Source: Escherichia coli
GTDB taxonomy: Bacteria; Pseudomonadota; Gammaproteobacteria; Enterobacterales; Enterobacteriaceae
Direction: 5' to 3' (one strand)
Assembly (NCBI RefSeq): GCF_003334405.1
Contig: NZ_QOWM01000004.1
Length of the DNA stretch: 64,000 nt
The position numbers were made by a program, and so were the translations under genes. This document shows positions 43,973-45,739 of this stretch, piece after piece (within the stretch, counting starts at the first letter, position 1; each line of letters begins with the position of its first letter). Below the pieces are notes generated by a model. The model had not been told where the DNA came from, did no database searches, and saw nothing but the letters and a program-made list of their open reading frames with translations.

Positions 43973-44413
43973 AACTTTTCCTTTATTCATCGCATGGACA
44001 ATACGTACGCTTGAGATCAGGATTGTCTACTTTGAGTATAACATCCTTGTGAAATCTCCCTTTCCTCATACCGCTTGCACTATATACTGCGGGTAGGAAA
44101 GGCGCGCAGAGGGAAATATAAGATTGTTAACTATCCCCCTCTGGAAATACGACTTGTGAGCATAAGATAAATCTTAGCAAAATACAAATTAAAGATAAGG
44201 AAATTGTTACGAAAGCTATTAATTATTGTTGGTAATATAGTTTCAAGTGGTACTATAACTGGCTGTTAAATGGCATTTATAACTATTAGGTGCAGAGATA
44301 TTCGCTTAAATGGATTAGTTTCTTTGTGGAAAAGTAACTGATGTTATAATGTATGATGTTGACTATTGCACTATTCCAATAAAACCAGTCAGCTTTAAAC
44401 AAGCAGCGTCATA

Positions 44414-44626
44414 TTAAGAGAGATAAACATTTGCCGCTGTTGGTCCTCGCAGGCCATTTACGCGGCAAAATTCCACACGTAATCCTGGTATAAGCACTTC
44501 TGCGTCGCGGGGAGTGAATGCGGAAATATGGACCTGAACTTCTTTACGACCGTCGGAGGGGATAATGAATCCTTTGCCGCTTTTGCGATCAAAGGTTTTG
44601 ACAATTCCTGTCATTTTACGGGACAA
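44414..44626 (-). CDS. cspH: Cold-shock-like protein CspH
   Basis: 70-aa ORF with cold-shock-domain fold ([16 protein letters not shown]). Confidence 0.93.
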
Positions 44627-44911
44627 ACAAATTCCTTACTGAAAATACTGCGCTGCACTATACGGGGTTAATAAAATAAAGCCAGCGATATTTAAGACCG
44701 CCGGACGGCTAAAATAAAATTTGCTTAATCTCAATTATCATGCGTTAATAGCTGCGTCGGTTTGAAAGACAGACAGCATACAAAGTAGTTTACTAAAGCA
44801 GTTCTCATTATCAGGCATTATCCCCTTCTTTTGAGTCTCTCTCCTGAACACTAAGTAGTTTCTGTATTAAAGCCCTGTTTGCCGAAAGGCCCAAAATGAA
44901 GGAAGTAAAAT

Positions 44912-45124
44912 ATGTCTAATAAAATGACTGGTTTAGTAAAATGGTTTAACGCAGATAAAGGTTTTGGCTTTATCACTCCTGATGATGGCAGCAAAGACGT
45001 TTTCGTCCATTTCACCGCCATCCAGAGCAATGAATTCCGCACGCTGAACGAAAATCAGAAAGTTGAATTTTCTATTGAGCAGGGGCAACGTGGCCCCGCG
45101 GCAGCGAACGTTGTTACGCTCTAA
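44912..45124 (+). CDS. cspG: Cold-shock protein CspG
   Basis: 70-aa [37 protein letters not shown], canonical RNP1/RNP2 motifs. Confidence 0.94.
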
Positions 45125-45323
45125 GGTTGCCATTATTACTCAACATCTCCATTTCCGCTGTCCATGTTGTCATGGTTCACAGTACCGCACATCGGCATTC
45201 GATGTGACGGAGCGAAACCCTTTGGGCGCTAAGTGTATTTTTTGTAAATCGACGATGATCACCTTTGATAACGTCGCGCTGCAAATACGCACTGACCATG
45301 CGCCGCTGGATTTCACAAAATAA
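45063..45323 (+). CDS. Candidate zinc-ribbon small protein (unassigned; see findings)
   Basis: 86-aa ORF with a CPCC...(26)...CIFC arrangement; overlaps cspG 3' end and ymcE 5' end; start codon uncertain. Confidence 0.25.
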
Positions 45324-45528
45324 TATCAGGCTCCCTCGTGGAGCCTTTTTTATATCTGCCTTATTTTTCTTCAACGCTGTATGTATAGTAAGCGATAACC
45401 TGTTGATTATTGAATCTTTCGGGGAGATGGCTTATAACATTTCTTACCTGACCAGGGTACCGGGAACCAACACCTTACTGGCGTGTTGCTGTCTTTTAAG
45501 ACCAGAAGAGGTTAACAGTGAATATTGA
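45298..45528 (+). CDS. ymcE: Small protein YmcE
   Basis: ORF 45265..45528 trimmed to [25 protein letters not shown] (76 aa). Confidence 0.85.
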   Translation: MRRWISQNNIRLPRGAFFISALFFFNAVCIVSDNLLIIESFGEMAYNISYLTRVPGTNTLLACCCLLRPEEVNSEY

Positions 45529-45691
45529 AGAGTTAAAAAAACAAGCCGAAACGGAAATCGCCGACTTTATCGCGCAAAAAATCGCCGAGCTGAACAAGAA
45601 TACAGGGAAAGAAGTCTCTGAAATTCGCTTCACCGCACGAGAAAAAATGACCGGGCTTGAAAGTTATGATGTCAAAATCAAAATAATGTGA
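45518..45691 (+). CDS. gnsA: Small protein GnsA (suppressor of secG/fabA phenotypes)
   Basis: GTG-initiated 57-aa ORF (M)NIEELKKQAETEIADFIAQKIAEL; 11-nt overlap with ymcE. Confidence 0.85.
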   Translation: MNIEELKKQAETEIADFIAQKIAELNKNTGKEVSEIRFTAREKMTGLESYDVKIKIM

Positions 45692-45739
45692 TTTTGTGAA
45701 CATCACCCCGTGCGAGGTGATGTTCCGCTTGTTGCTAAT

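Follow-up and report, generated by a model that had tools for sequence, protein, structure and literature searches.

The AT-richness of the Escherichia coli cspH/cspG-ymcF/gnsA cold-shock locus is best explained by an origin in lambdoid-phage cargo

Two described systems are close to the DNA analysed here, which lies in a 64,000-nucleotide stretch from Escherichia coli (hereafter the window). The first is the K-12 locus b0989-b0991, b4723 and b4517, whose gene set, gene order and overlaps are shared with the window and which is 100% identical to it from cspG to yccM, an interval whose genes are all already annotated; K-12 differs in carrying IS1D between gfcA and cspH, where the window has none. 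The second is the late region of lambdoid phages, represented here by the Qin prophage, phages Lambda_2H10 and mEp460, and 79 phage contigs, with the gene order Q - cspF/cspB - ynfU - S R Rz - cspI - ynfQ - ynfR/ynfN - gnsB - nohA. Single parts of the locus have also been described. The cspG RNA thermometer is already published (PMC13271884), overexpression of gnsA leads to more unsaturated fatty acids, and in passages of the secondary literature GnsA is cited as toxic when overproduced and ymcE-gnsA is described as an operon and counted among the toxin-antitoxin pairs of E. coli. The locus is not mentioned in the Weaver 2019 preprint.

A check of open reading frames against annotation resolved positions 43990-45700 into cspH on the minus strand, a 285-bp spacer, cspG on the plus strand, ymcF, ymcE and gnsA (Table 1), which identifies the segment as a locus with an existing annotation, the E. 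coli cspH/cspG-ymcF/gnsA cold-shock locus. A first-pass annotation made from the letters had described divergent cspH and cspG around an AT-rich spacer of 285 bp and a GTG-started gnsA overlapping ymcE by 11 nt, and both descriptions agree with the coordinates (spacer 44627-44911, 38.2% GC); a zinc-ribbon open reading frame noticed at the same time is the annotated ymcF, named 'cold shock small protein YmcF' by PGAP, which overlaps ymcE by 26 nt. The locus itself is thus textbook E. coli, and its description in those terms adds little. The reading that we favour as a whole, to which we would give a probability of roughly 70%, is that of a known locus made up of three small transcription units and a piece of gfc regulatory DNA, with an origin in phage cargo.

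Table 1. Coordinates of the features of the locus, given as positions in the window.
Feature	Position	Strand	Description
gfcA-cspH intergenic region	43973..44413	.	35.1% GC; upstream of gfc operon
cspH	44414..44626	-	TTG start; CspF/CspH-type cold-shock-domain paralogue; K-12 b0989
Divergent promoter region	44627..44755	.	cspH promoter side and putative cspG promoter
cspG 5' UTR (156 nt)	44756..44911	+	Cold-box, RNA-thermometer leader; RF01766
cspG	44912..45124	+	Cold-shock protein; NCBIfam equivalog NF007378
ymcF	45135..45323	+	ATT start; 62-aa zinc-ribbon (C9xxC12 ... C34xxC37); K-12 b4723
ymcE (sfa)	45298..45528	+	Annotated 76-codon ORF
Putative intrinsic terminator of cspG-ymcF transcript	45328..45352	+	7-bp GC-rich stem, 5-nt loop, T6 run
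Predicted gnsA promoter	45410..45438	+	TTGAAT, 17 nt, TATAAC; sigma70-like
gnsA	45518..45691	+	GTG start, 57 aa, GnsA/GnsB family

The segment had been called visibly lower in GC than its flanks, and it has 40.9% GC against a window mean of 51.2%; with all 1711-nt intervals of the window as reference (sd 3.4%), 1.8% are as GC-poor. Codon composition likewise sets it apart: the pooled codons of cspH, cspG, ymcF and gnsA have a GC3 of 0.452, and resampling of genes from the window gives 0.573 +/- 0.043 (P = 0.007). The deviation is not a matter of intergenic DNA alone, because coding GC3 is low too. The intergenic pieces have 35-38% GC, and other intergenic DNA in the window spans 31-54%. The low GC probably has two causes, a large share of AT-rich regulatory DNA and the descent of the module from phage cargo. 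As a single AT-rich patch the islet holds up in composition and fails in unity, for its first part, 43973-44413, belongs to a gfc/etk indel considered further below.

The evidence for phage cargo begins with the order of the matches. In BLAST comparisons, 44418-45026 aligned with cspF, spacer and cspB (76%), 44908-45271 with cspI and ynfQ (74%), and 45499-45692 with gnsB (73%). The locus is syntenic with the cargo cassettes of the lambdoid late region. Both have a divergent csp pair whose spacer and 5' UTR are homologous, an ATT-started zinc-ribbon gene that begins 10 nt past a csp stop and ends in a terminator, and a gns gene served by a promoter to itself. They differ in layout: in the phages the lysis genes separate the two cassettes, by 2.5-3.7 kb, whereas in the window the two are fused inside cspG, a fused layout absent from all 79 phage contigs. 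They also differ where the phages have ynfR/ynfN, the window having unrelated DNA there (the body of ymcE), and in composition, GC3 in the window being 0.1-0.17 above that of the phage copies. For csp, ymcF and gns, respectively, GC3 is 0.36, 0.31 and 0.29 in the phages and 0.47, 0.48 and 0.45 here, as compared with 0.57 in host genes; the core gene cspA, at 0.55, is host-like. The nucleotide divergence from the phage copies, about 25%, is old, a point to be set against this reading.

The fusion can be placed within cspG itself. In identity bins, cspG is a mosaic, resembling cspB upstream and over its first ~70 nt and cspI thereafter, and a maximum chi-square test put a breakpoint near nt 70 of the gene (P<0.0002 for UTR plus coding sequence); on the coding sequence alone the same test was not significant (P = 0.07-0.19), so the signal rests mainly on the flanks. 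In 40 phage contigs cspB and cspI flank the lysis genes as direct repeats, at a distance of 2.5-3.7 kb from each other. We infer that the module 44414-45739 is most simply two phage cargo cassettes, cspF/cspB from downstream of Q and cspI-ynfQ-(ynfN)-gnsB from downstream of Rz, joined inside cspG when the two csp repeats of a prophage recombined, with loss of the lysis genes between them. What was left of the prophage would have disappeared later, and the GC content would have drifted partly toward that of the host.

The distribution of such modules is consistent with movement. The module adjoins yccM/torS in Escherichia only; among 79 genomic loci, csp-ymcF(-gns) modules fall into ~30 clusters of flanking sequence, in unrelated chromosomal contexts in other genera, and 181 viral stretches encode relatives of YmcF. 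The islet thus combines a deviant coding composition with a patchy distribution over mobile elements and different contexts. Marks of mobility at the site are missing: there is no tRNA in 30000-60000, no flanking direct or att-like repeat, and no phage or integrase open reading frame in 43990-45740, and tblastn with QuuQ, EssQ, RrrQ, RzpQ and NohA gave no match at the Escherichia loci. The direction of transfer between phage and chromosome is not proven, because the islet bears no structural, lysis or integrase remnant of a phage, no tRNA and no flanking direct repeat.

These same bare flanks would suit a locus ancestral to the chromosome, with a low GC that reflects functional constraint only (from promoters rich in AT, UP elements, small gene size and a UTR that is long and structured) and with csp, ymcF and gns taken up by phages separately. 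The GC of the spacers, inside the intergenic range of the window, and the one stable chromosomal context in which ymcF is found across Enterobacter, Lelliottia, Silvania and other related genera also agree with such a history. We nonetheless consider it unlikely, since the low coding GC3, set against that of core cspA, and the confinement of the yccM/torS site to Escherichia both speak against it, as does the highly uniform layout of the phage region across the 79 contigs. Moreover, deriving cspB and cspI from cspG would take at least two partial captures, with half of cspB and the UTR of cspI replaced as well, whereas in the opposite direction, from phage to cspG, one recombination suffices. 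That the islet is an old horizontal acquisition, as had been proposed from its composition, is accordingly supported as plausible by its low GC3, its Escherichia-only site and its matches to phage cargo, and the AT-richness of the locus is, on the sequence comparisons made here, best explained by an origin in lambdoid phages. The major E. coli cold-shock gene cspG would then belong, with cspB and cspI, to a family of cassettes travelling between chromosomes and lambdoid phages, which has a bearing on the way stress regulons come together.

The cold-shock genes themselves are typical of their family. CspH matched the NCBIfam equivalog model NF012008 with 176.1 bits (cutoff 141) and CspG matched NF007378 with 179.2 bits (cutoff 144), placing both in the CspA family; cspH is 79% identical in nucleotides to cspF of Qin and would be read leftwards out of the 285-bp spacer. 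Most of that spacer is taken up by the cspG promoter and the 5'-UTR RNA thermometer. The putative cspG promoter consists of TTGCTT (44721-44726) and GTTAAT (44744-44749) separated by 17 nt, with an AT-rich tract upstream, and its position agrees with the Rfam cspA-mRNA match, which begins at 44756; the promoter driving cspG and ymcF would be of the cspA type. The divergent promoter region is 56-66% identical to the spacer between cspF and cspB. A terminator-like hairpin on the minus strand (44704-44682) was dismissed, as such hairpins occur at chance level (3 found, 3.0 expected). The thermoregulator model RF01766 matched window positions 44756-45178 over model positions 1-428 with 159.3 bits (gathering score 78). 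This full-length match is shared with the published cspG, cspB and cspI thermometers, and so is pairing between the 5' UTR and the first part of the coding sequence, seen here as an inverted repeat that links 44782-44802 and 44927-44947 over a long range; the cspG UTR resembles that of cspB and not that of cspI, and otherwise shows no notable difference from cspA-type thermoregulators.

Downstream, cspG and ymcF look like a bicistron. The ATT start of ymcF lies 10 nt past the cspG stop, and an AAGG sequence resembling a Shine-Dalgarno site overlaps the TAA stop codon, a layout typical of coupled pairs that is kept in 36 genomic and 78 phage loci. Of the 79 genomic loci, drawn from a wide range of Enterobacteriaceae, 43 have ATT or ATC as the ymcF start codon; 36 of these 43 starts follow the stop of an intact csp gene by 9-10 nt, TAAGG or TGAGG being present at that stop, and all 36 copies starting with ATG lack an intact csp gene upstream (Fisher P = 8e-16, with kinship ignored). 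No canonical in-frame start is available in 18 of the 44 ATT/ATC cases, these being the 43 genomic loci and the copy in the window. Decayed csp remnants precede the ATG-started ymcF in Raoultella, Klebsiella and C. sedlakii, and after csp loss, of which we counted at least four independent instances by eye, ymcF has an ATG start and a strong Shine-Dalgarno sequence. In the phages the start is ATT or ATC in 79 of 79 contigs, and the gap to csp is exactly 10 nt in 78 of them.

We therefore consider translational coupling likely between cspG and ymcF, one step upstream of the chain that had been proposed for the small genes. Ribosomes reaching the end of cspG would go on to make YmcF, through termination and reinitiation, and YmcF would in this way come under the same cold control as cspG. 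The sites where transcription starts, the efficiency of termination and the reinitiation itself are features that we infer from the DNA here. The short gap, the Shine-Dalgarno-like sequence over the upstream stop and an AUU start kept only with an intact upstream gene make the predicted coupling of cspG to ymcF resemble known cases of termination-reinitiation at weak or non-AUG starts. AUU starts also occur in E. coli infC and pcnB; infC serves autoregulation by IF3, of which cspG-ymcF shows no sign. A conserved AUU start coupled to csp offers a testable expression mechanism for YmcF, a cold-shock protein that is uncharacterised.

In ymcF, variable sites fall mostly at third codon positions (0.055/0.037/0.37 per codon position), and among 40 diverse homologues 26 columns are invariant; the signature of the YmcF/YnfQ zinc-ribbon proteins (about 62 aa), [13 protein letters not shown] ... 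GAKCIFCK, does not vary among them. The AF2 model has a small, beta zinc-ribbon-like fold (pLDDT 71), and a Foldseek search with it found no significant neighbour in the PDB, only generic zinc-ribbon matches such as ribosomal eL43-type proteins, TFIIB/TFIIE and Parkin (all E > 1). A resemblance of its CPCCHGSQY motif to Rieske box II, seen in a profile search of PDB sequences, was not significant (E = 0.047) and was set aside. The cspG-ymcF transcript would end at an intrinsic terminator right past ymcF; in 36 of 80 loci a hairpin with a T-run begins 0-9 nt past the end of ymcF, and the stem sequences vary between loci with pairing kept. A weak match to STnc220 in the window scored under the gathering threshold and is read as the 3' end of ymcF plus this terminator.

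The first-pass annotation had suggested that coupling runs from the zinc-ribbon gene through ymcE to gnsA, and the evidence on ymcE goes against this. Its open reading frame overlies the 3' end of ymcF with the terminator, as well as the promoter and leader of gnsA. Its ATG is lost in the Escherichia lineages L008, L010, L011 and L042, and frameshifts or stops occur in L007, L008, L009 and L042, so that start or frame is gone in six of the six other Escherichia lineages (L007-L011 and L042), in all of which gnsA is intact. Variable sites in ymcE (0.20/0.125/0.154 per codon position) show no excess at third positions and no codon periodicity, and similarity of the promoter and leader DNA aside, no ymcE counterpart is found next to gns in phages or Citrobacter; at this position the phages have ynfN or nothing. 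Judged by these comparisons, ymcE is probably not a conserved protein-coding gene, and the frame is probably a by-product of the terminator and of the gnsA promoter and leader. Coupling of ymcE to gnsA is unlikely because ymcE loses its ATG or frame and lacks codon periodicity. These observations correct both the annotation of ymcE and its status in a toxin-antitoxin pair.

A translationally coupled chain from ymcF through ymcE to gnsA, or in its published variant a type II toxin-antitoxin operon coupled by the 11-nt overlap, is accordingly very improbable in our view. The 26-nt and 11-nt overlaps are real, PGAP calls GnsA a 'GnsA/GnsB family addiction module toxin', and the literature cited above lists the pair. 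With type II modules the locus shares two small overlapping frames and a GnsA reported as toxic on overproduction; it differs from them in that the proposed antitoxin frame is not conserved with the toxin elsewhere and in that a promoter lies inside ymcE. A chain would have to persist although ymcE is lost in all six lineages where gnsA remains under purifying selection, although gns in Citrobacter and phages has no ymcE partner, and although a terminator and a conserved promoter stand between the start of ymcE and gnsA.

We suggest instead that gnsA is read from its GTG start and from its own, predicted sigma70-type promoter, whose -10 element ends 79 nt ahead of the GTG. Promoters of this kind are kept 73-86 nt upstream of gns in Escherichia and in the Citrobacter loci L013, L016, L019 and L022-L025, and Qin-type phage gnsB copies have sigma70-like sites upstream too. 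Membership of GnsA in its family is firm, with matches to PDB 4XO1/4XO2 ('Protein GnsA', E = 1e-31) and, over residues 1-57 (its full length), to PHROG 2301 (116 bits); its variable sites per codon position are 0.13/0.02/0.33. The gnsA leader does not fold significantly (z = -0.86), and a comparison of 14 homologous leaders revealed structure that was neither conserved nor covarying. A stronger version of our reading, in which a domesticated fragment of a prophage late region carries a mobile csp-ymcF bicistron whose AUU start depends strictly on reinitiation, with ymcE spurious, we hold only tentatively, at somewhat less than even odds.

There remains the leftmost part of the segment. In the Escherichia lineages L007, L008, L009 and L042, 43973-44413 is missing together with 36144-43972, and by this comparison the gfcA-cspH spacer is part of an 8.3-kb etk-etp-gfc indel, absent from several Escherichia lineages, that lies outside the csp module. 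The spacer is also a hotspot for insertion sequences, with IS1, ISKpn26, IS421 and IS2 inserted strain by strain. These four families bear on the further proposal that the patch is bound and silenced by H-NS as xenogeneic DNA, its AT-rich spacers serving as H-NS sites that form the main regulatory feature of the locus. IS insertions upstream of silent operons often go with H-NS-silenced regions, and the AT content of the 441-bp and 285-bp spacers (62-65%) and the foreign-like composition would suit H-NS as well. Silencing of this kind would be compatible with an origin in phage cargo, and we regard it as possible and on balance rather doubtful. No direct ChIP evidence for it was found in the literature consulted, and a table of RpoD SELEX results marks H-NS at several spacers but not at that of gfcA/insA4 (PMC3946193). 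Against silencing, finally, cspG is among the most strongly induced of the cold-shock genes and is therefore not silent.

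Of 5426 complete E. coli genomes, 5419 contain the region at 43600-45800 (megablast); the window is Escherichia coli chromosome, and its cspG-to-yccM stretch is identical to K-12 MG1655. The gene map was transferred from the K-12 annotation; K-12 differs in carrying IS1D between gfcA and cspH, which is missing from the window. The architecture described in the first-pass annotation, with a divergent csp pair around a 285-bp spacer and an 11-nt ymcE/gnsA overlap, is exactly what the window sequence contains, and its zinc-ribbon ORF is the annotated ymcF, named "cold shock small protein YmcF" by PGAP. 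The islet is already known and annotated, and there are modest side results concerning the conservation of an AUU start codon, the doubtful status of ymcE and an origin from fused phage cassettes.

Features of the islet and its surroundings, in window coordinates
Feature	Coordinates	Strand	Remarks
gfc indel	36144-44413		8.3 kb
gfcA	43667-43972	-	K-12 annotation
gfcA-cspH spacer	43973-44413		441 bp, AT-rich
Reported FliA ChIP site	44196-44223		TAAGGAAATTGTTACGAAAGCTATTAAT
cspH	44414-44626	-	TTG start; K-12 annotation
Rfam cspA thermoregulator match	44756-45178		159 bits; gathering score 78
Inverted repeat	44782-44802, 44927-44947		UTR; early coding region
cspG	44912-45124	+	K-12 annotation
ymcF	45135-45323	+	ATT start, 62 aa; K-12 annotation
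YmcF residues 6-18	45150-45188		Invariant motif
STnc220 match	45281-45361		ymcF 3' end and terminator
ymcE	45298-45528	+	K-12 annotation
Hairpin region encoding YmcE N-terminus	45324-45352		Qin ynfR: L003 4189-4254
Terminator	45328-45352		GC-rich hairpin and T-run
Conserved DNA within ymcE	45396-45517		
Predicted gnsA promoter	45410-45438		TTGAAT-17-TATAAC
gnsA	45518-45691	+	GTG start; K-12 annotation
yccM	45740-46813	-	K-12 annotation; torS listed after yccM
Lowest-GC ORF	57487-58743		418 codons

The low GC content noted in the first pass is real: 43990-45700 has 40.9% GC versus a window mean of 51.2% (sd 3.4% among same-length segments), and only 1.8% of such segments are equally low, the sole lower region lying near 57 kb. 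The two spacers (35.1% and 38.2% GC) are low, yet inside the range seen in intergenic DNA elsewhere in the window. Coding sequence deviates as well, with a GC3 of 0.452 for the pooled cspH, cspG, ymcF and gnsA codons versus 0.573 +/- 0.043 in resampled genes (P = 0.007), and this is not inherent to csp genes, GC3 being 0.55 in core cspA. The window's GC minimum, an ORF (GC 34%, GC3 0.31), is far more deviant than the csp islet.

Judged against other Escherichia lineages, the segment first delimited is not one unit, and the csp module proper is bounded by the cspH stop (44414) on the left and by about 45739 on the right. A block comprising etk, etp, gfcEDCBA (the group-4-capsule cluster) and the AT-rich spacer upstream is missing from E. 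coli E69 (L007), a further Escherichia lineage (L008), E. whittamii (L009) and Escherichia sp. E1V33 (L042), and the left quarter of the original segment therefore belongs to this gfc indel. All four have convergent appA and cspH genes that share ~14 nt, the CspH C-terminus ...NVYLS being retained via different codons. The gfcA-cspH spacer is an IS hotspot, holding IS1D in K-12 and, in other strains of E. coli, ISKpn26 (IS5-like), IS421 (IS4-like) or IS2; a FliA ChIP site listed there, in the insB-4/cspH intergenic region, is described as weak and probably not genuine (PMC4183435). On the right, gnsA of Escherichia sp. MOD1-EC7003 (L010 1-8396) is followed by cbpM, cbpA, wrbA and putA, with intact yccM and the tor cluster missing and just a weak YccM-like match (63% identical) left, so that this flank too is an indel boundary, at about 45739.

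Three pieces of the islet have counterparts in the Qin prophage and in phages Lambda_2H10 and mEp460. One, running from cspH through the spacer into the initial 115 nt of cspG, corresponds to cspF-spacer-cspB (76%); the second, the whole of cspG plus ymcF, to cspI-ynfQ (74%); and the third, gnsA, to gnsB (73%). Relative to the cspG ATG, binned identity flips from cspB-like to cspI-like, with the UTR and first 60 nt at 60-95% to the cspB locus and 37-88% to the cspI locus, and the stretch running from around nt 70 through ymcF at 37-74% and 56-80%, respectively. A maximum chi-square breakpoint falls near nt 70 of cspG (P < 0.0002 for UTR plus CDS); for the CDS alone it is not significant (P = 0.07-0.19). 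PMC13271884 independently likens the cspG UTR to the cspB one, not to that of cspI. In 40 of the 58 phage contigs with enough flank, the two csp copies flank the lysis genes as direct repeats with a spacing of 2.5-3.7 kb, and a single recombination between such repeats would remove the lysis cassette and create the exact Escherichia arrangement; the fused layout occurs in 0 of 79 phage contigs. GC3 rises stepwise from phages (csp 0.36, ymcF 0.31, gns 0.29) through the islet (0.47, 0.48, 0.45) to a host-gene mean of 0.57, which fits acquisition long ago with later drift of the composition toward that of the host.

The module lies beside yccM/torS in Escherichia only, and related modules occur elsewhere, in some 30 different flank contexts overall. 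Examples are the ybjP-ybjQ interval in the Citrobacter freundii complex (L014, L015, L017, L021), a site next to icd in C. sedlakii, the phoP-purB interval in a further Citrobacter and, in Salmonella subspecies, sites close to integrase or IS fragments. The slot downstream of the ybjP-ybjQ module is occupied by gnsB and appA in C. gillenii UMG736 and by qnrB89 in strain FP75, or is empty; appA thus neighbours the module in both Citrobacter and Escherichia, on opposite sides. Cassette matches, GC3 and scattered contexts together support and refine the horizontal origin originally proposed. No phage core gene, tRNA or repeat was found to mark the islet site, which counts against a phage origin, and the direction of transfer therefore remains inferred. 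One contig filed as viral in IMG/VR (L089, IMGVR_UViG_3300045988_094846) is the E. coli chromosomal ymcF-ymcE-gnsA-yccM-torS region, probably through prophage-boundary overshoot or misclassification.

The ATT start of ymcF lies 10 nt past the cspG stop, which is overlapped by an AAGG. Relatives of YmcF were sought in one genome per species and 79 loci retained. Forty-three start with ATT or ATC, 36 of them 9-10 nt behind an intact csp gene; the other 36 start with ATG, all without intact csp upstream and with a strong Shine-Dalgarno sequence (Fisher P = 8e-16 over the 79 loci, kinship not corrected for). The ATT aligns exactly with the ATG of stand-alone homologues, and a canonical in-frame upstream start is absent in 18 of 44 ATT/ATC cases (the 43 loci and the window copy). 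Decayed csp remnants with stop codons precede ATG-start ymcF in Raoultella and Klebsiella, the csp gene beside ATG-start ymcF is degenerate in C. sedlakii, and remnants with in-frame stops lie directly 5' of ATT-to-ATG-switched ymcF at L031, L032, L038, L041, L037 and L018. All 79 lambdoid-phage contigs taken from IMG/VR have an ATT or ATC start in ymcF, and the gap is exactly 10 nt in 78. We suggest that YmcF is synthesized by reinitiation after csp translation, and that upon csp loss ymcF would acquire an AUG and its own ribosome-binding site.

This putative cspG-ymcF coupling, we infer, replaces the coupling through ymcE proposed earlier, which is not borne out: the ymcE ATG is replaced in 4 of the 6 other Escherichia lineages and the frame shifted or stopped in 4 of 6. 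Across these six lineages the variable-site fractions at codon positions 1/2/3 are 0.05/0.05/0.42 for cspG, 0.055/0.037/0.37 for ymcF, 0.13/0.02/0.33 for gnsA and 0.20/0.125/0.154 for ymcE. Part of ymcE is conserved at the DNA level, as expected of promoter and leader, and ynfR/ynfN occupy its place in phages. Taken together, the lost ATG and frame, flat codon-position variation, DNA-level conservation and phage replacements make ymcE look like an ORF created by regulatory DNA, its status being doubtful, at odds with secondary sources in which ymcE-gnsA is given as a toxin-antitoxin pair or an operon. The predicted gnsA promoter keeps its distance in Escherichia and several Citrobacter loci, and sigma70-like sites likewise lie upstream of phage gnsB copies; the fold of the gnsA leader is neither significant nor conserved.

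The terminator hairpin begins 4 nt past the ymcF stop, and equivalents lie 0-9 nt past it in 36 of 80 loci, with stems that differ in sequence and keep their pairing. YnfR, a small (21 aa) cold-induced protein, is encoded across the terminator hairpin after ynfQ (PMC6001520), as is the YmcE N-terminus across the equivalent hairpin after ymcF; the two share ...GAF... residues dictated by the stem. The ymcF 3' end and terminator weakly match STnc220, a Salmonella sRNA model (34 bits, E = 0.003, with a gathering score of 60 that is not reached), and what is called an sRNA in Salmonella may come from the 3' end of a csp-ymcF mRNA.

Upstream of cspG, a putative cspA-like promoter (TTGCTT-17-GTTAAT) ends 7 nt before the Rfam thermoregulator match. 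The inverted repeat pairing UTR with early coding region fits the published RNA thermometer of the cspG 5' UTR, in which the ribosome-binding site is sequestered at 37 C (PMC13271884). Most of the AT-rich 285-bp spacer is thus regulatory DNA that was already known.

CspG is a major cold-shock RNA chaperone. Overexpression of GnsA, whose structure is solved (4XO1/4XO2), increases unsaturated fatty acids; it also suppresses fabA6(Ts), the secG null mutation and, in a fadR mutant lacking ppGpp, cold-sensitive growth. The conserved zinc ribbon YmcF has no significant structural neighbour by its structure model. All three bear on cold adaptation, and we speculate that phages may carry them together for this reason. 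The invariant YmcF motif resembles the Rieske [2Fe-2S] box II CPCHGS (E = 0.047 versus PDB sequences, not significant), and its ligand set might, in principle, bind a partner other than zinc.
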